Shown here: in pieces, positions 8,192 through 61,526 of the stretch
How the letters are laid out: each line of letters opens with the position of its first letter
How positions within the stretch are numbered: the stretch's first letter is position 1
DNA from: Rubripirellula sp.
GTDB taxonomy: Bacteria > Planctomycetota > Planctomycetia > Pirellulales > Pirellulaceae
Length of the DNA stretch: 64,000 bases
Direction: 5' to 3'
Assembly: GCA_965216875.1 (NCBI GenBank)
Contig: OZ244207.1
Location: 3,744,001-3,808,000 of the forward strand
Notes under the pieces: generated by a model
Seen by the model: the letters and a program-made list of their open reading frames with translations, nothing else
Database searches by the model: none
What the model was told of the DNA's origin: nothing
Program-made: the position numbers and the translations under genes

Positions 8192-9676
8192 CTATTCAAT
8201 CAGTTCCTTGCCGGCGAAGGTCAGGTACGCCTTTAGCTTGGCATTGTCGAGGTCCTTTCGGGCAAACGTCAGCACGGAGCCATCGAGCATGAGAGCCATG
8301 ACGATGTCGCGGTCACCAAAGACGCTCGACATCGGATCGTCTTCGTCCAGAACCCAAGGTTCGGGGTTGGCCCACGCCACGGCGGCATCAGCGGGAGCGT
8401 AGATCGCCGCAATCGTGTTGGAGGTCCCATCGATCACGTCACGGAACTTGCGTGGGGGACCATCACCATGCCAAAGCGACCCGGGAAAAACGGGAGCGCG
8501 GAAACGTGTCATCACCGTTCCATTACCTGCATCCAACTGTGGGATGACCGTTTCGACGGGCGTCTTGTTCGCTGCATCGTTCCATGGCTTGTCGAGCTGA
8601 ATCGACTTGTGCAGCGCCGCTTGTTCCATGTAGGGCAACACGGTGACGCGCCAACTGTGCAACGCACGACCTTCGCGGTCGGTCAAACAACGCGGGGGCA
8701 GGTGATCGTTGGTGGCATAGTAGTTGTGCATCGCCAACCCCAATTGCTTGAGGTTGTTGATCACGACCATTCGGTCGGCCGATGCGCGAGCGGGTGCCGA
8801 GAGGTCCTTGGCGAGCTGGCCGATGGTCTCGGGGGCAGCCGACAAGGTGATTGTCGTGGCCGACACAACCACATCGACACTCTTGGCAACTTCCGGCGAA
8901 TTGGCGATGGCGCGGTCAACGACGACCTTGACCCGCTCGGTCGCCTCGGCGTCGGCGGTGTCGATGCTGATACGCACCTGCGGTTCTGGGGGCAGGTTGA
9001 CCGAAACCACGATGCGGTCGATGTCTCGAACCATCTCTTTCGGCGACAGCTGAATCGGTGCGCGATCATCAAGACGATCGGGCCACATCAGCGCCAACTC
9101 TTCGCGTGCCTCTTTGGGCAGTGCGATCACCATCGTGTGATCGAGCCGATCCTGGGCAGAAAGAGGACCGGTCAGATCGGCGCGGTCGACTCCCTTACCG
9201 TCGACCACGCGATCGACCGCCGCGCCGGCCCCACCCACCAGCACGTTGTCACCAGTGTGGACTTTCAAGTCCTTGCGCCCTGAGCCGTTCAGCAGCATTG
9301 CGGCGAGACCTTGCACCATGCTGGTGTTCTCGCAAGGAACAACAAACAGGGGACCACCGTCGGTCACCGACTGCGTCGCGCCGGTCATGTAGACATGTGA
9401 CACGCCAGCGGCCTTGAGCGAGTCAATCAAGCCCTTGCCCATGATCGCTTGCTGTTTCGCGACATCCTTGTTGCCTGCTGGGGACAACTCCAGAGTCCAC
9501 TTTGCGAGTGCTTCAACGTCGATCTTTGTGATATCGATGTCGATGACCCCAAGTGTGCCCGATTCGATGTAGGGCGAAATCCCGTCGCTTTGTTGTGCTT
9601 GTAGTTGTTGTGCATTTCCGTTGACACCGATGGCCAACAAGGCTGCAACCAGAAGTGGAAAACATCGAAGTTTCAT
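8192..9676 (-). CDS. Exported protein with C-terminal DUF1559 domain
   Basis: Signal peptide MKLRCFPLLVAALLAIG; NNLKQLGLAMHNY, HSWRVTVLPYMEQ and DVIDGTSNTI motifs; ATG overlaps the upstream stop (TGATG). Confidence 0.85.
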   Translation of the reverse strand: MKLRCFPLLVAALLAIGVNGNAQQLQAQQSDGISPYIESGTLGVIDIDITKIDVEALAKWTLELSPAGNKDVAKQQAIMGKGLIDSLKAAGVSHVYMTGATQSVTDGGPLFVVPCENTSMVQGLAAMLLNGSGRKDLKVHTGDNVLVGGAGAAVDRVVDGKGVDRADLTGPLSAQDRLDHTMVIALPKEAREELALMWPDRLDDRAPIQLSPKEMVRDIDRIVVSVNLPPEPQVRISIDTADAEATERVKVVVDRAIANSPEVAKSVDVVVSATTITLSAAPETIGQLAKDLSAPARASADRMVVINNLKQLGLAMHNYYATNDHLPPRCLTDREGRALHSWRVTVLPYMEQAALHKSIQLDKPWNDAANKTPVETVIPQLDAGNGTVMTRFRAPVFPGSLWHGDGPPRKFRDVIDGTSNTIAAIYAPADAAVAWANPEPWVLDEDDPMSSVFGDRDIVMALMLDGSVLTFARKDLDNAKLKAYLTFAGKELIE

Positions 9677-11187
9677 CAGTGGTCTCCTTTCTTGAGTTCG
9701 ATATGAAAGACGGTTTGATCGTCGCCAGGCCATTGCGGGGCACGCATGAGCGTTGCCGTTGTCAGCGACGTACGTTGATACACGAAGGGGCCTCGAGCCA
9801 AGGGGTCGTGCCAAGCGGGGACAGGCCGCAAGTCTTCGATCGAAGTTGGCAGTTCATCATCTTCGGCTGCATGCATTCGGAGCGATTCGAGGCAGAGAAG
9901 GAAGTTGCGAGTCTGGTTCGTTCGCACACCCGCACGCCGTGCCGCTGCAATCGCGGGAGTGAACATGATCGCAATCTGTTGCATTTGGTCGGCGGCATTC
10001 ACAGGCTCCATCGACGCCTGACGTTCCTTCGAAAACTCATCGTAGACTTCAGGTGGAAGCAAAGCCCATTTGACCCATCGATCTCGAACGCGGGCCAAAC
10101 TCAAGTGGGTCGCACGCAAAACGGCTTCGGGAGCCGAAAGCTCGTAGGCTCGCTCGCCCCAATCGGTGGACTCGGCCAAAATCTTGCGTGACGCGTCGGC
10201 CATGGTGACGACGTACACGCCCGAAAGCAGCTGAGCATCAATATCACCTTTGCCAAAGCCAGCCGACATCAACGATTGAACTTCATTGGCGAGTTCGCGG
10301 ATGTGTTGACGCGAGACTTCAGGACCAATCGGATCGTCAGACAGTTCCTGAACGGGCTGAATGAATCTTGAGATGAGTACCGATTCGAATTCGATCGAGT
10401 CTCGCGTTTCAAAAAGCCGCGTCTCGGGCAGGCTTGCCAGTGCCCAGTAGAAGTTGGGACACCCCGGTCGTTGGATCGCTTCGAGGACCGAGTCCATCGC
10501 CATGCGTGAAATGGCAAAGCCCACCAAACGCCCAACGAGAAACTCGGTGCTGTGACCGGCAACCTCGGCCAGGCGGAAGCCAAGCCGAACATCATGCTCG
10601 ACGTCCTCCCAACGCTCTTCGACGATCGCAAGTCGAATTCGAAGCCGCAACATCCTCGCGAGCTCACGCATCTCTTGAAATTCAGGCAACAGCGTTGCGA
10701 TCATTTCGGATGCGGAAAGGTTGTCGAGTTGGATGTCGTATTCGAGCCGCATGTGATTCTCGGCCCGTTCAAGTTCGCCGAGCGCCGTCGCCGCAAACTT
10801 GTTTAGGAACTCGCGTACCTCTTCCTTGGGCAATTGGTCCAGGGGCATCTTGGACCACTCGTTGTAGCGATCGGCAACCTCGCGTCTGCCTTTCTCGCTG
10901 TGGCGATTGTTCATCGAGATGATGACAGCGCGATTGACCAACGGCAGCGGGTTGTCATCGAGTCGATCGGCCGGGTCTGGCCAAAACCGATAACGGAGTG
11001 CCGGATCGGGTTCGGCCGCTTGATACAACTGCAGTGTTTTGACTTTGTTCTTGGCTTGATTTGCGTCCGCCTTTGCGTCTCGCAGCGACGGTGCCAAGAG
11101 TTTCTGAGCGTGCAGGTTCACACAGGGTGTCAAACCCATGATCGGAACCAACGCGATCAAAGTTACCAATAGACGTACCTTCATCAT
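9676..11187 (-). CDS. Exported helical hypothetical protein, translationally coupled to the DUF1559 gene
   Basis: 503-aa ORF with signal peptide; SD-like AAGAGGGAG before the ATG. Confidence 0.8.
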   Translation of the reverse strand: MMKVRLLVTLIALVPIMGLTPCVNLHAQKLLAPSLRDAKADANQAKNKVKTLQLYQAAEPDPALRYRFWPDPADRLDDNPLPLVNRAVIISMNNRHSEKGRREVADRYNEWSKMPLDQLPKEEVREFLNKFAATALGELERAENHMRLEYDIQLDNLSASEMIATLLPEFQEMRELARMLRLRIRLAIVEERWEDVEHDVRLGFRLAEVAGHSTEFLVGRLVGFAISRMAMDSVLEAIQRPGCPNFYWALASLPETRLFETRDSIEFESVLISRFIQPVQELSDDPIGPEVSRQHIRELANEVQSLMSAGFGKGDIDAQLLSGVYVVTMADASRKILAESTDWGERAYELSAPEAVLRATHLSLARVRDRWVKWALLPPEVYDEFSKERQASMEPVNAADQMQQIAIMFTPAIAAARRAGVRTNQTRNFLLCLESLRMHAAEDDELPTSIEDLRPVPAWHDPLARGPFVYQRTSLTTATLMRAPQWPGDDQTVFHIELKKGDH

Positions 11188-14555: not shown

Positions 14556-14954
14556 ATGGTTTCGTTGCTGTTAGCCATGGTGCTTTCAACAGTACCAAGT
14601 GAACAACAAGTGCAACAAAACTACGCGGATGCCTACAAGAAGTCGGTCGCCGAGGGGAAACCACTGATGGTGGTTGTCTCGGCACCTTGGTGCCCTGCTT
14701 GCAATGTCTTGAAGGACACCACGATCCGCTCGATGGCCCAAAATGGCGAATTGGATGAAGTCAGCCTGACGGTCATCAATCGTGACGAAGAGCCTCAGTT
14801 GGCTCAACAATTGACGAAGGGCGACCAGATGTTGCCCCAAATCATTGTCTTCTCTCAGGAAGAGAGCGGCAGTTGGAAACGCCGCCGCCTGACAGGCTAT
14901 CAGCCTCGCCAGCCAATCCGTTCGTTGATTCGACGAGCGCTTGGACGCGGCTAA
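14556..14954 (+). CDS. Exported thioredoxin-like protein (WCPAC)
   Basis: Signal-like N-terminus; GKPLMVVVSAPWCPAC; cis-Pro MLPQ; SD GAGGGAG. Confidence 0.85.
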   Translation: MVSLLLAMVLSTVPSEQQVQQNYADAYKKSVAEGKPLMVVVSAPWCPACNVLKDTTIRSMAQNGELDEVSLTVINRDEEPQLAQQLTKGDQMLPQIIVFSQEESGSWKRRRLTGYQPRQPIRSLIRRALGRG

Positions 14955-49558: not shown

Positions 49559-49885
49559 TCATTCCAGCGCTCGATCGAGAGCCTCGGCATAACGTTGCTG
49601 CTGCTGGTGTCCGAGCAGCGTTTCAACAACGATGCCGTTTCGAAAGATAAGGACGGTTGGCAGCCGTTGAACTCCATAGCGGTCGGCCAACTCGCGGTGC
49701 TGGTCAACATCTACCTTGGCAACGGTGGCTACCGATTCATATTGCTCGGCAAGTGAGTCGATGACTTGGCCAAGCAATCGGCAGGGCGGACACCATGGCG
49801 CCCAAAAATCGACCAGCACCGGGCGATCCGAATCGATCACCTGCTGCCGAAACGTGGCGTCGGTCAAATCAATCGTTTTGGCCAT
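49559..49885 (-). CDS. trxA: Thioredoxin (WCPPC)
   Basis: PVLVDFWAPWCPPC, AKVDVD, YGVQRLPT; 108 aa. Confidence 0.92.
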   Translation of the reverse strand: MAKTIDLTDATFRQQVIDSDRPVLVDFWAPWCPPCRLLGQVIDSLAEQYESVATVAKVDVDQHRELADRYGVQRLPTVLIFRNGIVVETLLGHQQQQRYAEALDRALE

Positions 49886-55647: not shown

Positions 55648-56832
55648 ATGATTCGAGTGGTTTGCAGTCTCTCGTTGATGTTCGTGTCGACGATTGCGTT
55701 TGCCCAATTCAAACTTCCGACGGTCGATGAAGCTCTGAAGATCTCGGCCGAAACGGGTAAACCGATTTTCGCGATGGCGGGCCAAGAAACGTGACCGCCT
55801 TGCGTTGCGTTGCTCAAACGGCTCGAAACCGATCGGTCGTTGGCACGCTTTGCGGGACAGTTCGTTCCGCTCAAAATTGTCACAAGCAACAATCCGGACT
55901 GGGCCAAGTGGTCCCGAAAGTACCCGGTCGACGGTAACGGCATCCCTCGACTTTACGTCGTTCGCGCTGATGGCGAAAAACTTTTCGGCGCCGTCGGCTC
56001 ACTTCCCGGTGACAAGCTTCCTCAGATGATGACGGCCGCATTACAAATGTCGGGTCGGCAATTCAACGAAGTCGAAGCAACGGCACTCAAGTCAGCGGGC
56101 GAAAAAGCCAAATCGGAACTGAGCAACAACAATCCCCTTGCCGCCGCACACGCGCTGGCATCCATTTCCAGCCTCGGTGCCCCAGATGAACTGGGCAGCT
56201 TCGCTCGCACCGCGGTCCTTGCCGGGGAAGCGTTCGAAGAATTGCAGAAGCAACTTGAATCGCAAGTCGACGATGCCCAATCGAAACTGTCAGCCAGTGG
56301 TGATCAAGAAACGCTCACCGCACTGGTCAAGATCGCGGAAGCCGAAAACGCCTATTCGCTCTTTCCCAAGCTTCGCAAATCGGCAGGTGGGCTCACACGA
56401 GAGATCAAGAAAGAGAAACCATTGGCAGATCTCTACACTCAAGCGAGTGGCTTGGTCAAAGCCCGCGCGTTGGTTTATTCGCCCAAACGAAACGTCAAAC
56501 TACGTGCGAGTTCGGCCTTTGCCTCGTTGATTCGGCGCTACCCCGGAACAGAAGTTGAAACGCTCGCACGCAAAGACCTTGAAGAGATTGATCCTGATGC
56601 GGCGATCCTCAGCGCCGACACGCCGTCGATGACCGTATCGCCAAACGCATCGAAACCGACCACGTTCCGCACCTGGACTTCCAAGTCGGGGACGTTCGAA
56701 ACCGAAGCGATGTACTTGCAACAGAAATCGGGCAAGGTTCAACTGCAGTTACGCAACGGCCGCAAAATCGTGGCATCGATCGATCAGCTCAGCGAATCCG
56801 ATCAGGCCTACCTCCGAACTCGCATCCAATGA
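55648..56832 (+). CDS. Exported thioredoxin-fold + SHD1-domain protein with in-frame TGA (55792-55794) in a UxxC motif; predicted selenoprotein / UGA-readthrough product (394 aa)
   Basis: ATG 55648 gives a signal peptide then ...VDEALKISAETGKPIFAMAGQET-TGA-PPC-VALLKRL, in frame with the 55810-56832 ORF; cis-Pro GIPRLYVV; C-terminal RTWTSKSG...LSESDQAYL (SHD1). Confidence 0.75.
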
Positions 56833-57074
56833 ACCCCTACGATTCCCCCAACGAACCTCGCGACCCGACCGATCGACCGATCTACCACCACGATCCCGAA
56901 GAACTGGCGGCGCGGCAAAAAGCATTGCTCGTTCGCCTCGGATTGCTGGCCGTCCTGACCACCGTCATTTCGTTGATCGGTATTTTTATCATGGGGCTAG
57001 CCGTTGTCCCCATCTCCATTCTGGTCGCTCTGGTCACGGGGATCCTGTTCACGGTCAAGCCTAAGGATCGGTAG
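56829..57074 (+). CDS. Small membrane protein with N-terminal NPYxSP motif
   Basis: ATGA overlap with the upstream stop; two hydrophobic helices. Confidence 0.7.
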   Translation: MNPYDSPNEPRDPTDRPIYHHDPEELAARQKALLVRLGLLAVLTTVISLIGIFIMGLAVVPISILVALVTGILFTVKPKDR

Positions 57075-57133
57075 CGACAGCCCCTCGCATACGCGCACGT
57101 GAGCTGAGAGTCGGCCGCCACAAACCATCGGCG

Positions 57134-57436
57134 ATGAATCACGATTCCCTTCTGCCGCATCAACGTGACCTACATCGATGTCTTGTCATGGAAGCCAAGC
57201 AGGCTGGCGAAACCACCATCATCTACCGCACCGAGTGGCTAGGCTATCTGCCCTACGGTCAATATCACTGGATCGAGTGCAACGGCGAAACGCTCACGCT
57301 CGACCTGGGCCAAGACTGGGAATTGAGTGACCTGGAACAGCTCGAACGGTTGGGGCTTCTCACCAAACTGAGTGACACGACCGCAAAGGATGACCACACC
57401 GATCGCGCAGTCGTTTACGAAATTCGCGAAGGTTGA
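57134..57436 (+). CDS. Hypothetical protein (100 aa)
   Basis: ATG-initiated ORF filling the gap; normal composition. Confidence 0.55.
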   Translation: MNHDSLLPHQRDLHRCLVMEAKQAGETTIIYRTEWLGYLPYGQYHWIECNGETLTLDLGQDWELSDLEQLERLGLLTKLSDTTAKDDHTDRAVVYEIREG

Positions 57437-57484
57437 AACCGACACCATCCGTTGGCTGCTGGCCGACGGTTGCTGGGCCTTTGG

Positions 57485-58708
57485 TCACTGAACCTCAGGC
57501 TGTCGGGGTTCAAAACGCAGGTTGCGGAATCGGGTATCCCACCCCCACAGCCCAATCTTGCCCGACGCTCGCTCACCAAGCATTTCTTCGACAACCAACA
57601 CGGGCGTTTCGAAATCCTCGACGTACGTAGTGAGTGTTTTCCCGTCGAGTTCGATGCGAACTTTGAACCATTCGTTGACCGTCATCTCAGCGCCCGCTTC
57701 GTACTTGCCGGGAGATTGAGTTCGCAGCGTTCGCCAATCAGCGCCGTCAACACCCTTCGAAACGTATTGGACTGAATTTTGGTGCTTGGCCGTTCCCGAG
57801 TTTTGAGGACGGAAATAGATCAAGTCATAGTTGGACGTATCGGATCCACGGATAGCAATGCCGCTAAAGATATCCGAAGCGATCTCCACTTCGATGACGC
57901 CATCGCCCAGTTCCACACCGGGCAAGTAGGCAACGGTGTTGTCTTGGCCTTTGGTGTGTGCGACACGCTCGCCTTGAAACATCACCGAGTCAATCGTGCC
58001 ATTGACTTCCCGCCAGTCGACGTTGACCAGATCAATCATTTTGCCGGGCTCGATCTTCGCGGCTGGTTTGTTTGGCATCGCCGCAGGTTTGCTCGTTGAT
58101 GCGACGAGCTTTTCAAAGACCACGGTCGAACTGTTCGACACGACCGCAAGTTGTCGATTGTTATCCGCTCGAAACGCGATGTTAGGTTCCAATCGACGGA
58201 CGTTCCCCTCCCAATCGACAAGGGCTTTCCCATCAAGCTTGGCCGCGATCGAAACGCTATCCTCGCCGGCACGAGAAACCTCGACTTCTACCTGATAAGG
58301 TCGACCGTTTTCGAGGGTGCCGGGGCGCACCGAGGTTGGATTGGATTCATCCTTGGAACTCAGCGAGTCGACCCTGGCAAGACCATGCGAATCACCTTTC
58401 CAGCCACCCAGCTCAAGCAACACCTGCGTTTGGCCAAGCGGAAGCACAATTCCCACGAGATCCTCACCCGTTCGTCTGATGAATTGGAACGACACCGTGT
58501 AGGGTAGCGCGATGTCGTAGTCGATCGGACAGATTGATCGGCCGCCGTCCGCGTCACAAACAAGCGTGGTTTCGGTCTGATCCCAACTCCCCACGATGCC
58601 GGTTGACTCGAGATCGATGACCTTGAGCAGGTCGACCTTCGTGCTTTGACCGTGGGCGGAAAAGCAGAACAGGAACGGGAACGTCGCAACCATCAGACGA
58701 ACGAGCAT
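57485..58708 (-). CDS. Exported beta-sandwich protein (DUF1080 / concanavalin-like domains)
   Basis: Signal peptide ending AHG; GVIEVEI, SGIA.R, YFRP.N, WFKVRIELDG, GKIGLW, FRNL. Confidence 0.72.
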   Translation of the reverse strand: MLVRLMVATFPFLFCFSAHGQSTKVDLLKVIDLESTGIVGSWDQTETTLVCDADGGRSICPIDYDIALPYTVSFQFIRRTGEDLVGIVLPLGQTQVLLELGGWKGDSHGLARVDSLSSKDESNPTSVRPGTLENGRPYQVEVEVSRAGEDSVSIAAKLDGKALVDWEGNVRRLEPNIAFRADNNRQLAVVSNSSTVVFEKLVASTSKPAAMPNKPAAKIEPGKMIDLVNVDWREVNGTIDSVMFQGERVAHTKGQDNTVAYLPGVELGDGVIEVEIASDIFSGIAIRGSDTSNYDLIYFRPQNSGTAKHQNSVQYVSKGVDGADWRTLRTQSPGKYEAGAEMTVNEWFKVRIELDGKTLTTYVEDFETPVLVVEEMLGERASGKIGLWGWDTRFRNLRFEPRQPEVQ

Positions 58709-58887
58709 GCATGATCTCCTCGTGCTGAAACCGATCGCAGCCTCGCGGAGTCCCAGCAGTCTATTGAAGCACATCGAAACCCAGCGCAACATCGGCTGGC
58801 ACTACTTATACGAACGAGTCTCCGAGGATCTTGATTGCACCAAATTTCTCGTCATGATGATTTTTATGGGGATCACCCCGTGACGGT

Positions 58888-59406
58888 GTGATCGCTTGGA
58901 GAAATCTGTTGCAATCCGAATCGAGTGCTGAGTCGAACGACGATCGCGCAATCATACGCGCCGGGTTTCGCTATGCGCTGTCGTTGACCCATGACCGGCA
59001 CGATGCCGAAGATCTCGTCCAACAGGCATGCCTCAAGACGTTCCGGTCGCGCGGCAAATTGATCAGCAAACGGTACCTGTTCGTCGCGATTCGCAACCTG
59101 TTCGTTGATCGATGTCGAAAAAAGCAACTCCATCGCGCCGATCTCGACACCGTCGACTTGGCCGACCCGAAGCCCTCTCAATCGGAACGGCTCGAACATC
59201 GCGACGACATCCAAACCATGCTCAGCCTGCTTAGTTACGAGCAGCGCGAGGTGTTGTTTCTCAATTGCGTCGAAGGCTACACCGCCGCCGAAATCGCTGA
59301 AATCACAGGACAACCCCGAGGAACGATCCTGAGTCAATTGGCTCGTGTAAAAAAGAAGCTCGTGGATCGCTTTGGCGATGTGGAGGTGACATGCCATGAC
59401 GATTGA
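58888..59406 (+). CDS. ECF-type RNA polymerase sigma factor
   Basis: RYALSLTHDRHDAEDLVQQA, YLFVAIRNLFVD, QREVLFL..VEGYTAAEIA...PRGTILSQLAR. Confidence 0.9.
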   Translation: MIAWRNLLQSESSAESNDDRAIIRAGFRYALSLTHDRHDAEDLVQQACLKTFRSRGKLISKRYLFVAIRNLFVDRCRKKQLHRADLDTVDLADPKPSQSERLEHRDDIQTMLSLLSYEQREVLFLNCVEGYTAAEIAEITGQPRGTILSQLARVKKKLVDRFGDVEVTCHDD

Positions 59407-60007
59407 CGAGCAAGACGTTGTTGACTTCTATAAGAACGCCGAGCTTGATGACGCACACGTTGATGCCATCCTCGCAAGCGGGCAACATGTCGTCTCGGCG
59501 CGGCGATGGAAACGCATCGCGATCGCTTCGATGGTTGCTTTGGCAGCAACGTTAGTCGTTGTTGTCGGCGTTCTATCACGCAATGCCGATGCTCCTCATC
59601 AAAACGATCAACAACAGGCTGCACGGCCCGACGAGGGTGTCAATGCGGTTGTGCGGCCGAGCGCCGAAGTTGAGCAACCCGCAACGACCTACCGGCTTGC
59701 CGCCTTTCGCAGCCACAATGATCAATGCCCGCATTGTCGCGCCACCGGCGAGCTGTACCAAACGCTGTCGGATCGTTTTGCCGACGCGTCGATCGAATTC
59801 GAAAAGTTTGAGCTTCAAGACCGAGCTCGCCTCGATGACACCAAAGCGAAAATCAAAACACGAGGGCTTGGTGAACTGGTGGAAGGAAAACAGGAGACTG
59901 CGTTCGCCGTCTTGCTGTCGCCAACCGGCAAGGTGTTGCAACGGTTCAAGGGAACGGATGACGTGCAAAGCGTCCAAACCAAGATCGCCAACGTGATCGA
60001 GCAATAA
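59396..60007 (+). CDS. Putative anti-sigma factor with TM helix and extracytoplasmic CxxC thioredoxin-like domain
   Basis: Overlaps the sigma stop, SD GGAGGTG; short cytoplasmic N-terminus, TM helix, AFRSHNDQCPHC, LLSPTGKVLQRFKG. Confidence 0.72.
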   Translation: MTIDEQDVVDFYKNAELDDAHVDAILASGQHVVSARRWKRIAIASMVALAATLVVVVGVLSRNADAPHQNDQQQAARPDEGVNAVVRPSAEVEQPATTYRLAAFRSHNDQCPHCRATGELYQTLSDRFADASIEFEKFELQDRARLDDTKAKIKTRGLGELVEGKQETAFAVLLSPTGKVLQRFKGTDDVQSVQTKIANVIEQ

Positions 60008-60018
60008 CCGAGTTCCCC

Positions 60019-60145
60019 CGTAGCTACGCTCGCCAGAGCGTGGGGTTTTGAAAAACGCTCGACCAACGCATTCCATGTTCTTGCGAAGGTAGCGACGGTT
60101 TGGAAAGGTCAGCCCGCCCCAGATGTCATGCACAGCATGACCTAC
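60019..60145. repeat. REP family B (inverted, degenerate) and family C arm
   Basis: CGTAGCTACGCTCGCCAGAGCGTGG...GCGAAGGTAGCGACG; GTCATGCACAGCATGACCTACG. Confidence 0.7.
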
Positions 60146-60203
60146 GGCAGCTACAATGAACTCCAACCATTTCAAAGCATCTTCCGTTTGTGGGAACGCT
60201 CTG

Positions 60204-61526
60204 ATGCCAACACTCACTCGCTCGTTCGTGCACTGCGTGCTGTTCGTCGCCGCGTGCTTGGCGACTTGCGTCCCTTGCTTTTCGTCCGAGCCGTTTCGAT
60301 ATGACGACACGGGCGACAAGCTTCCGCGGCCGCGTTTTCACAACATCCAAACGGGATTGCCAGGAGGCATCGAGCGTGATGCGTTGCTTTGGGGTATCGA
60401 TCCGACCGGCACATCAAAGTGGAACCTCGGCTGGTTTGTTTACGGGGCCCAGGATTCGCGTAGCATCGCCATCGGATTCAAAGCGGGCACACCCAGCCAG
60501 CTTTATGTTGACTTGAATCGCGACAAAACCTTTCAAGCCGATGAACGGATCAACGCCGATGATCCTGGCGTCGAAAGTTGGCAAACCAAGATCGATGCCG
60601 AATTCGTTACCGAGTCGGGTGACTTTGAAACGGCAACCCGTTCGATTCGCATTCGACGTTTGGGGGACGAGGCGATCCAAATCGCAACAACCGGCGTGAT
60701 GCGAGGCCAAGTCGAGATTGGTGGCACCTCGATCGCCGCAATCCGGATGGATCGTGACAGCAACGGTCGCTGGTTCGACGCTGCCGATCGCATCGTGTTG
60801 GACCTCAATGGTGACGGCAAAGTCGATTCGATCGGCGGCCGTGTCGCCTGTGAATCAATCACGCGGCTGTTCGGAAAACGCTATGTGCTCAAGAGTGATC
60901 AAGTAGGAACGAGTATCGAATTCGACGAACTCGTTGGGACCGGATCGATCGCTCCTCACCTTCCGCTGAAACCGTCCGTCGAGCTGAGCAAATTCAACGC
61001 TTCGCTTGTTTCGCGTGGTGGAGTTCGCGTTGCACTCGAAGGGCTCGAGCCACGAGACGAATGCCCTGTTGGCCATTATCGAATTGAGTCGCTTTCGTTT
61101 GAGGTCACCGAAGCGGATGAGCAATACGAGTTCTTTTTCTACGGGTCGAACCAGTCGAAGTACCCGTTTGAAGTTTCCGATGCCGGTTCGACCAAAGTCG
61201 ACCTGCTGGGCGAATTGAAACTCGGCGGCGGCCAAACGGTGATCCCGCGTCCGGACGGGGCGATGATCACGATCAACCCATCGCTGACCACCACCAGCGG
61301 TCTCTACATGACCGACTGCAAAGCCGAACAACGAGAAAACCGATTGCTCGTTCGAGCGAGACATGGCGACCACGTTTTCGCGACCGCGTCTTCGGGATTC
61401 TCGTGAGGCAGTCTCTGTCCGGTCTCGGTCCGAGTCCCCCAATCTATTGAACCCCTTCACGTCACGTCGTTGCTTCTCTTTGACGGCGGTCCTCTCGCTG
61501 GCCTCTTGCAAAAGGTTGTTCCCTAG
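60204..61526 (+). CDS. Exported protein with in-frame TGA (61404-61406) followed by a 39-aa Cys-containing extension; candidate selenoprotein / UGA-readthrough product (ends at 61406 if TGA is a true stop; alternative ATG 60156)
   Basis: Signal peptide; DxNxD Ca-binding-like loops (DLNRDK, DRDSNG, DLNGDG); ...SSGFS-TGA-GSLCPVSVRVPQ...FDGGPLAGLLQKVVP-TAG, ending 5 nt before the next ATG. Confidence 0.65.

Follow-up and report, generated by a model that had tools for sequence, protein, structure and literature searches.

In the bacterial model of the selenocysteine insertion sequence (SECIS), exemplified by E. coli fdhF, the coding sequence downstream of the UGA codon contains a hairpin with a short stem, whose loop has a G within its first two positions and, next to it, a G or U. 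The bSECISearch rule, as summarised in PMC13188914, places the apical loop 16–37 nt from the UGA, and some genes fail it. By the figures given in PMC13326102, the database BSepDB assigns a canonical SECIS to 87.4% of its 57,630 entries for bacterial selenoproteins, the remainder being described as unexplained. Here we describe two genes, gene 1 and gene 2, in a stretch of 64,000 nucleotides from a Rubripirellula sp. (contig OZ244207.1, positions 3,744,001–3,808,000; hereafter the window), each with an in-frame TGA, at 55792 and 61404, where homologues encode cysteine. Very probably, both codons are read as selenocysteine (Sec) by the SelA, SelB, SelC and SelD of this genome, giving two predicted exported redox selenoproteins, with gene 1 using a hairpin 64 nt downstream by way of a folded spacer. 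Gene 2 fits the consensus in loop and spacing; gene 1, unlike it, has its loop 64 nt away and a separate conserved spacer hairpin in front, a well-supported departure from the bacterial spacing rule.

Selenoproteins with a thioredoxin fold and a UxxC site are known, and table 1 of PMC13188914 includes thioredoxin (PF00085), thiol:disulfide interchange (PF13098) and Trx7/PDZ (NF041199) families. Gene 1 resembles them in its fold, its UxxC site and the existence of Cys homologues, and differs in having an export signal, a helical middle and an SHD1 tail; NF041199 is listed there with CxxU. None of the families listed there places Sec in a U-G-x-x-C loop on an immunoglobulin (Ig)-like domain, as is predicted for gene 2. 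Among planctomycetes, table S9 of PMC4807772 gives 13 candidates over two genomes, P1 and P2, which have in common with the present genome a full sel set, FwdB and peroxiredoxins; two of its thioredoxin-like candidates are marked 'SECIS present: no', in a table that gives descriptions without sequences. The main texts of a 2026 review and of the BSepDB paper make no mention of planctomycetes.

In-frame TGA codons and the sel genes

Both in-frame TGAs are real, and both genes begin with a hydrophobic stretch (best 11-residue Kyte–Doolittle mean 2.27 for gene 1 and 2.59 for gene 2). The preliminary description of the window had placed each TGA next to a Cys codon; a cysteine is indeed nearby, three codons downstream in gene 1 and four in gene 2, not adjacent. 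Among 81 distinct loci of the gene-1 family, compared as DNA, the codon is TGA in 65, TGC or TGT in 14 and GCC (Ala) in two. In the gene-2 family, the junction was found in 20 other loci (TGA in 19 and TGC in one) and in none of the remaining 16 of the 36 loci examined. Across many planctomycetes, TGA is thus kept in both families more than chance would allow, which disposes of the case, raised beforehand, that neither codon is conserved in relatives. In addition, the gene-1 TGA is unchanged in contigs from two sequencing runs, each belonging to a different study; one of the runs may be the source of this DNA.

Public gene calls end or start at these codons and truncate both genes, and the preliminary description was right in taking the proteins as exported and Cys-like. 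Of 93 protein matches to gene 1, most start behind the TGA, span 75–86% of the gene and have no thioredoxin Pfam match; the match is found in 10, all with CxxC. The 153 homologues of gene 2 considered (the best 149 besides itself, plus four from a separate search) comprise 121 that end exactly at the TGA column, 22 that run on with C-G-x-x-C, and 10 that are partial or otherwise arranged. Such ends would also be expected if the TGAs were true stops or pseudogene lesions, with separate or dead reading frames behind them, and the 39 codons after the TGA of gene 2 score as non-coding in a weak dicodon model (-0.02 per codon). However, the peptide behind that codon is conserved and completes an Ig-like fold, the 22 Cys homologues read through it, and the TGA of gene 1 interrupts a Pfam domain at the catalytic Cys position in a family that keeps the codon in 65 loci. 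We hold this explanation to be very improbable.

The genome is a single 8.26-Mb contig (C1, to which coordinates prefixed G000:C1 or C1 refer), and the homologues found by protein search bear the names Rubripirellula, Pirellulaceae and Planctomycetota. No sel gene lies in the window, as had been observed; all sit elsewhere in the genome. A selB-selA-selD operon lies at C1:325168-330651 (selA with an E-value of 2.7e-123, the SelB wing-3 domain and selD), and selC at C1:7784436-7784530 specifies a tRNA-Sec with anticodon UCA (71.5 bits). TGA also serves as an ordinary stop, in 25 of the 47 predicted genes of the window and in 2094 of the 5645 of the genome by our own gene model, and the ATGA overlap at 56829 and a minus-strand TGATG at 9674-9678 are both present; UGA is therefore context-dependent, as first proposed.

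The preliminary description had offered, as one of two possibilities, a non-canonical reading of UGA, in which a suppressor tRNA would insert Cys or Trp or the codon would be read through conditionally. The alignment of TGA with Cys in homologues would suit such a reading, as would two TGA-bearing genomes with no selA match, although both are draft genomes, 90–92% complete. Neither a UCA tRNA of non-Sec type nor a genome-wide loss of TGA stops (table 4, UGA-to-Cys tRNA) was found in this genome: at its default threshold, the only ARAGORN list used because the many low-score UCA calls of a relaxed run are noise, one of 100 tRNA genes has a UCA anticodon and is typed SeC, and Rfam RF01852 agrees. 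Moreover, both genes bear SECIS-type hairpins, and TGA tracks selA, which was found in 26 of the 27 genomes that have gene 1 in its TGA form (one of them counted from the '1 TGA' flag of the search alone) vs three of eight with only the Cys form, and in 14 of 15 TGA genomes of the gene-2 family but not in its sole Cys genome. With a full sel set and this co-occurrence, non-canonical or suppressor decoding is not needed, and we rejected it as very improbable.

Several features of these loci were observed in passing. In the sel operon, the selD reading frame spans 749 codons and encodes a fusion protein whose N-terminal part is oxidoreductase-like; this SelD has Cys rather than Sec. The operon stands back to back with formylmethanofuran dehydrogenase genes (330811-335804), of which the B subunit carries an in-frame TGA. 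About 48 tRNA genes, including tRNA-Ile(TAT), form two dense clusters at G000:C1:591000-632638, and similar clusters are mentioned in PMC4807772. The default ARAGORN calls include a CTA-anticodon tRNA and a tRNA with a four-base anticodon loop (G000:C1:3282034-3282109 and 3442059-3442132), which may be false calls or pseudogenes.

Gene 1 and its two hairpins

The product of gene 1 comprises an export signal (approximately residues 1–19), a thioredoxin fold with U49-P-P-C52, a helical TPR-like middle and an SHD1 domain. Pfam matches Thioredoxin_7 (PF13899) at residues 25–106 (34.9 bits, cut-off 27) and SHD1 at 335–390, and the TGA splits the former. Cys occupies the TGA column in all 10 full-length homologues aligned, and C49, C52 and P100 are invariant in the 11 rows. 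The fold, the U/C-x-x-C motif at the start of a helix and the cis-Pro loop of thioredoxin-fold UxxC proteins are all present; in the predicted structure (pLDDT 86), residues 50–61 form a helix, and the best fold matches are YbbN, DsbH, thioredoxins and SHD1. No NCBIfam model fits, NF041199 reaching only 11.6 bits against a cut-off of 300, with no PDZ match. Two homologues (L147 and L149) lack both redox residues, with AGSA in place of UxxC, and show weak folding downstream.

The chaperedoxin YbbN (CnoX) of E. coli is a cytoplasmic protein. It is the best Foldseek match of gene 1 (PDB 3qou, E 8.7e-5) and likewise has a thioredoxin domain followed by helical repeats, yet the TM-score is only 0.23–0.28 at 16% identity, and gene 1 adds an export signal, the predicted Sec and SHD1. 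Gene 1 may thus be a periplasmic thiol-disulfide reductase or chaperedoxin, in which Sec49 would attack, Cys52 would resolve, and the helical and SHD1 parts would bind substrates.

Two hairpins follow the TGA of gene 1. The first, the spacer hairpin, folds with -16.7 kcal/mol (z -2.38); just behind it stands the distal hairpin (-9.9 kcal/mol, z -3.71), whose loop is of the NGUNN type. Against synonymous shuffles, the 65 TGA loci differ from the 14 Cys loci at both hairpins (z -2.46 vs -0.30 for the spacer and -2.01 vs -0.18 for the distal hairpin). No TGA-specific folding appears in the proximal window at +10 to +36 (z -0.25) or in a control window (z 0.00), and a proximal SECIS for gene 1 was rejected on this ground. 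The distal hairpin is present in 61 of the 65 TGA loci vs 1 of the 14 Cys loci, and its stem is paired in 92% of cells with 61 two-sided changes among the TGA loci, vs 49.5% and no signal among the Cys forms. The loop G (55860, +66) is invariant in 65/65 TGA loci and base +63 is A in 61/65, both at third codon positions. Synonymous codons are fixed as well: Ala is GCA in 34/34 cases (35/180 elsewhere), Gly is GGA in 21/21, and Gln is CAG in 49/49 (49/71 elsewhere). The alignment of the 65 loci is gap-free, and in the contig of a related strain a single substitution, A55857G, turns an A-U pair of the stem into G-U. On a quick tree of 79 rows, the Cys state of the family takes seven changes, at least three of them forced by strong branches; three of the Cys genes lie among TGA genes on the tree, and these retain the peptide QFVP but no longer have the hairpin stem.

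The distal hairpin has the G within the first two loop positions, the four or more pairs and the energy at or below -7.5 that define a bacterial SECIS, and departs from it in spacing, with 64 nt to the apical loop vs 16–37. With the UGA in the A site, some 12 nt beyond it are covered by the ribosome. Folding out of the spacer would place the distal loop at an effective 22 nt (12 + 3 + 7) from the UGA, and the distance in the other selenoprotein genes of this genome is 17–27 nt. We propose that, while the UGA is in the A site, the segment from +13 to +54 would fold and loop out, so that the hairpin at +58 to +76 would present its loop to SelB at this effective distance.

Alternatively, both codons would be Sec, but the near hairpin of gene 1 would be the true SECIS, of a class without a loop G, and the distal one would serve in pausing, mRNA stability or the like. 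The TGA-specific folding of the near hairpin favours this arrangement, as does its loop at +31 to +36, which lies inside 16–37 nt and begins with G in this genome. The loop sequence and register of the near hairpin vary across loci, however, whereas the distal hairpin has an invariant G, the NGUNN loop of the lineage and covariation, and is lost in Cys forms. We therefore regard the alternative as unlikely and retain the distal hairpin as the predicted SECIS of gene 1. A single consensus structure for the spacer was rejected, as RNAalifold recovers the distal hairpin alone.

Gene 2, its hairpin and its neighbours

The hairpin of gene 2 has the canonical loop and spacing, with GGUCC 20 nt after the UGA and a covarying stem. 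In 20 sequences, 85% of cells are paired with 11 two-sided changes, a level reached in 0 of 500 shuffles, and control registers obtained by sliding give 27–63% paired. Alone the hairpin is weak, at -6.5 kcal/mol for 23 nt (z -1.23); the consensus cut-off is -7.5, and a stretch of 45 nt reaches -10.8. With the UGA in the A site, this NGUNN hairpin would stand at the mRNA entry of the ribosome and bind SelB there, as in E. coli fdhF. The preliminary description had seen no obvious likeness in sequence between the downstream hairpins of the two genes. Those nearest to the two codons do differ, because the nearest one of gene 1 is a spacer; the distal hairpin of gene 1 has the same loop type as that of gene 2.

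The protein encoded by gene 2 begins with an export signal, contains three D-x-[DN]-x-[DN]-G/K loops along with beta-sandwich domains, and ends in an Ig-like domain with the motif G-F-S-U-G-S-L-C. The predicted structure is all-beta (pLDDT 94.5) and sets the motif in a loop between two strands of this last domain, which matches Ig-like folds with Z 8–9.6. The match to E. coli alpha-2-macroglobulin (Z 8.2, rmsd 2.2, 74 aligned) is level with those to other Ig folds, and the MG2 domain (PF01835) is found in one of 18 homologues, a Cys form, at 24.7 bits, below the cut-off of 32.8. Foldseek with the whole model gave nothing clear, only residues 337–441 being well tested, and the ESM Atlas search returned nameless planctomycete clusters only. 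At E 0.1, neither Pfam nor NCBIfam matches gene 2, and gene 2 with 20 homologues has no meaningful NCBIfam match at E up to 1. The family NF049953 'DG' (GUxG) was rejected, since its model does not match gene 2 in the genome.

The relatives of gene 2 form 369 clusters at 50% identity, and their junctions fall into two subtypes, SSGFx-U-GT/SFC and FEYG-U-GGxCxYSWRVP. Of the 18 homologues scanned, chosen largely by length, 10 are fused behind BlaR1/M56 peptidase domains; the nearest known counterparts are macroglobulin (MG) and other Ig-like domains and the extracellular sensor parts of BlaR1/M56 proteins. Four M56-fused proteins (P0224, P0239, P0240 and P0242) end at the TGA column, and some BlaR1-like signal transducers may therefore be selenoproteins. 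The Ig-like domain with U-G-x-x-C is modular (L083, L084, L085): four copies lie within 18 kb of genome G230 and another four within 5 kb of G117. The proteins that carry it vary from short to long, and membrane segments follow some of the copies. In three of the 10 genomes of the subtype, FEYG-U-GGxC genes lie no more than about 5 kb from selA, on the opposite strand (L081, G151:C592; L082, G066:C140; L083, G230:C54), and in two of these three the tRNA-Sec shares the contig with the FEYG-type gene and selA.

A sigma factor gene of the extracytoplasmic function (ECF) type and a gene for an anti-sigma-like membrane protein lie upstream of gene 2, and a large gene follows it (Table 1). By tblastn, the large neighbour accompanies gene 2 at five of eight loci of the GFx type and at none of nine of the FEYG type. 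The M56 fusions and these neighbours together suggest a possible role for gene 2 in envelope sensing or relay. Its U-G-x-x-C loop would be redox- or metal-reactive, carried on the Ig-like domain of a calcium-binding envelope protein; this protein would work together with the large neighbour and would probably form a module for sensing or relay.

Table 1. Coordinates in the window of the two genes, their hairpins and the neighbours of gene 2
Feature	Position	Strand	Description
Gene 1	55648..56832	+	ATG 55648, in-frame TGA 55792-55794, stop TGA 56830-56832; 394 aa via read-through
In-frame TGA of gene 1	55792..55794	+	Q-E-T-U-P-P-C; predicted selenocysteine at first position of CxxC site
Spacer hairpin of gene 1, 42 nt	55807..55848	+	+13 to +54 after UGA; A/C-rich loop, no conserved loop G
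Distal SECIS-like hairpin of gene 1	55852..55870	+	7-bp stem; loop AGUUC 55859-55863; +58 to +76
ECF sigma factor gene, upstream of gene 2	58888..59406	+	TIGR02937, 72.5 bits (cut-off 42.9)
Anti-sigma-like membrane protein	59396..60007	+	CPHC motif in C-terminal part; no family match above cut-off; putative role, from ORF and motif
Gene 2	60204..61526	+	ATG 60204 (or 60156), stop TAG 61524-61526; 440 aa via read-through
In-frame TGA of gene 2	61404..61406	+	S-S-G-F-S-U-G-S-L-C; predicted selenocysteine in U-G-x-x-C loop
Proximal SECIS-like hairpin of gene 2	61421..61437	+	Core CUC-GGUCC-GAG; loop 20 nt after UGA
Large exported neighbour, 1155 aa	61532..64000	+	Runs past window end; PF13620, 101.8 bits; carboxypeptidase-regulatory-like repeats, helical C-terminus

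Other candidates and the place of the two families

The genome holds about 18 selenoprotein candidates, a lower bound since they were picked by eye and the gene model itself missed gene 2; 12 have a hydrophobic, export-type N-terminus. In ten, the match to a known family spans the TGA (FwdB, rhodanese, ArsC-like, AhpC/redoxin, deiodinase-like, Rdx, HMA, peroxiredoxin, DUF3179 and CMD). Five have a TGA conserved in relatives, namely genes 1 and 2, thioredoxin-like genes at C1:1386418 and C1:3179718, and a short ORF of 84 residues at C1:332624. The coding score and a hairpin are what marks the other three (C1:3658658, 4039386 and 5002400). An N-G-[UG]-N-N pentaloop with at least three pairs at +14 to +32 occurs in 12 of 16 other candidates, the remaining four having, by eye, a tetraloop or shorter variants, vs 12% of 1499 genes with a true TGA stop; gene 1 has none in that interval.

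Three genome scans, the first based on the coding score at junctions, the second on a gene model in which a single read-through was permitted and the third on a hairpin filter, were all noisy. They chose 69 read-throughs for TGA vs 77 and 111 for the TAA and TAG controls, and most of the TGA cases are therefore adjacent genes. Of 20 candidate loci, 15 were kept and five dropped (L033, L043, L045, L046 and L048), because the family match does not span the TGA but falls entirely to one side of it, or because a motif or hairpin is lacking. Of the large unannotated exported selenoproteome first suggested, the export-type character stood and the size did not: a very large set is rejected at about 18 candidates against the bacterial record of 57–63 reported in PMC13188914, and the selenoproteome is moderate, unusual mainly for being exported.

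Three of the smaller candidates are described here in their own right. L184 (G000:C1:332462-332716), the acidic ORF of 84 residues, lies between fwdD-like and fwdB, carries SCHGRALG-U-TF with a 7-bp GGUUC hairpin, keeps its TGA in three of five relatives searched and is probably an unlisted small selenoprotein. L044 (G000:C1:1386418, minus strand) is an exported thioredoxin-like gene with CHGISGVF-U-PG and no Pfam or NCBIfam match, its TGA being kept in two G026 paralogues. L047 (G000:C1:3179718, minus strand) is membrane-anchored and carries HVSGNFEIPGFT-U-NN, with no nearby Cys and no family match; its TGA is kept in three of five relatives, and its hairpins are a proximal GGGU and a nine-pair AGUGU at +54. 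In the window, two further short thioredoxin-like matches, at 14613-14741 (+) and 49685-49849 (-), are stop-free within the match.

Several points weigh against the reading of both codons as Sec with a distal SECIS in gene 1. The presence of Sec in either protein and the binding of SelB to the distal hairpin are predictions from sequence. No selA match was found in one genome with the gene-1 TGA (G373, a draft, 92% complete) and one with the gene-2 TGA (G110, a draft, 90% complete), and selA is present in the three Cys-only genomes of one genus. The spacer register is not fixed, with 55% paired vs 50% when slid by one, and the support for the spacer is thermodynamic; a match to the loop in the proximal position occurs as well in seven of the 65 TGA loci (background approximately 5%). 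The 65 loci are related, so that counts overstate their independence, and the tree is a quick version. Gene 1 is without a conserved neighbour, its upstream gene recurring at one of 80 other loci, and the functions proposed rest on fold and context. In E. coli, the upper stem-loop lies 11 nt from the UGA (PMC8659212).

The fallback held out in the preliminary description, that of new families with an old mechanism, fits the full sel set and the predicted, ordinary SECIS of gene 2 but not the position of the one in gene 1. What the genome presents is an old decoding machinery with two apparently uncatalogued exported selenoprotein families. Neither family has an NCBIfam model or an entry in the 119-family review table, and in literature searches neither family, nor any distal SECIS in bacteria, was found to have been reported; the BSepDB database and some catalogues of 2025–2026, which could list the families, lay outside their scope.

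We lean towards a wider interpretation, in which recoding by SelB would need spatial and not linear closeness, a looped-out spacer letting a standard SECIS act from about 65 nt. The two-hairpin class would then be fixed in a whole family across a planctomycete order, escape the 16–37 nt rule on which prediction tools rely and perhaps explain part of the 12.6% of entries without a canonical SECIS. On the same, moderately favoured interpretation, gene 2 would found a phylum-wide class of selenoproteins outside the thioredoxin fold, with Sec on an Ig-like, modular envelope redox sensor. Gene 1 offers a testable answer for some SECIS-less entries, for which its family supplies 65 examples from nature and 14 Cys forms as controls. 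If the arrangement works, recombinant selenoproteins could be designed with the SECIS some 20 codons beyond the active site, clear of the catalytic residues. The family of gene 2 is large and routinely annotated 40 residues short, and its predicted Sec would stand on an Ig-like domain, not on a known redox fold.

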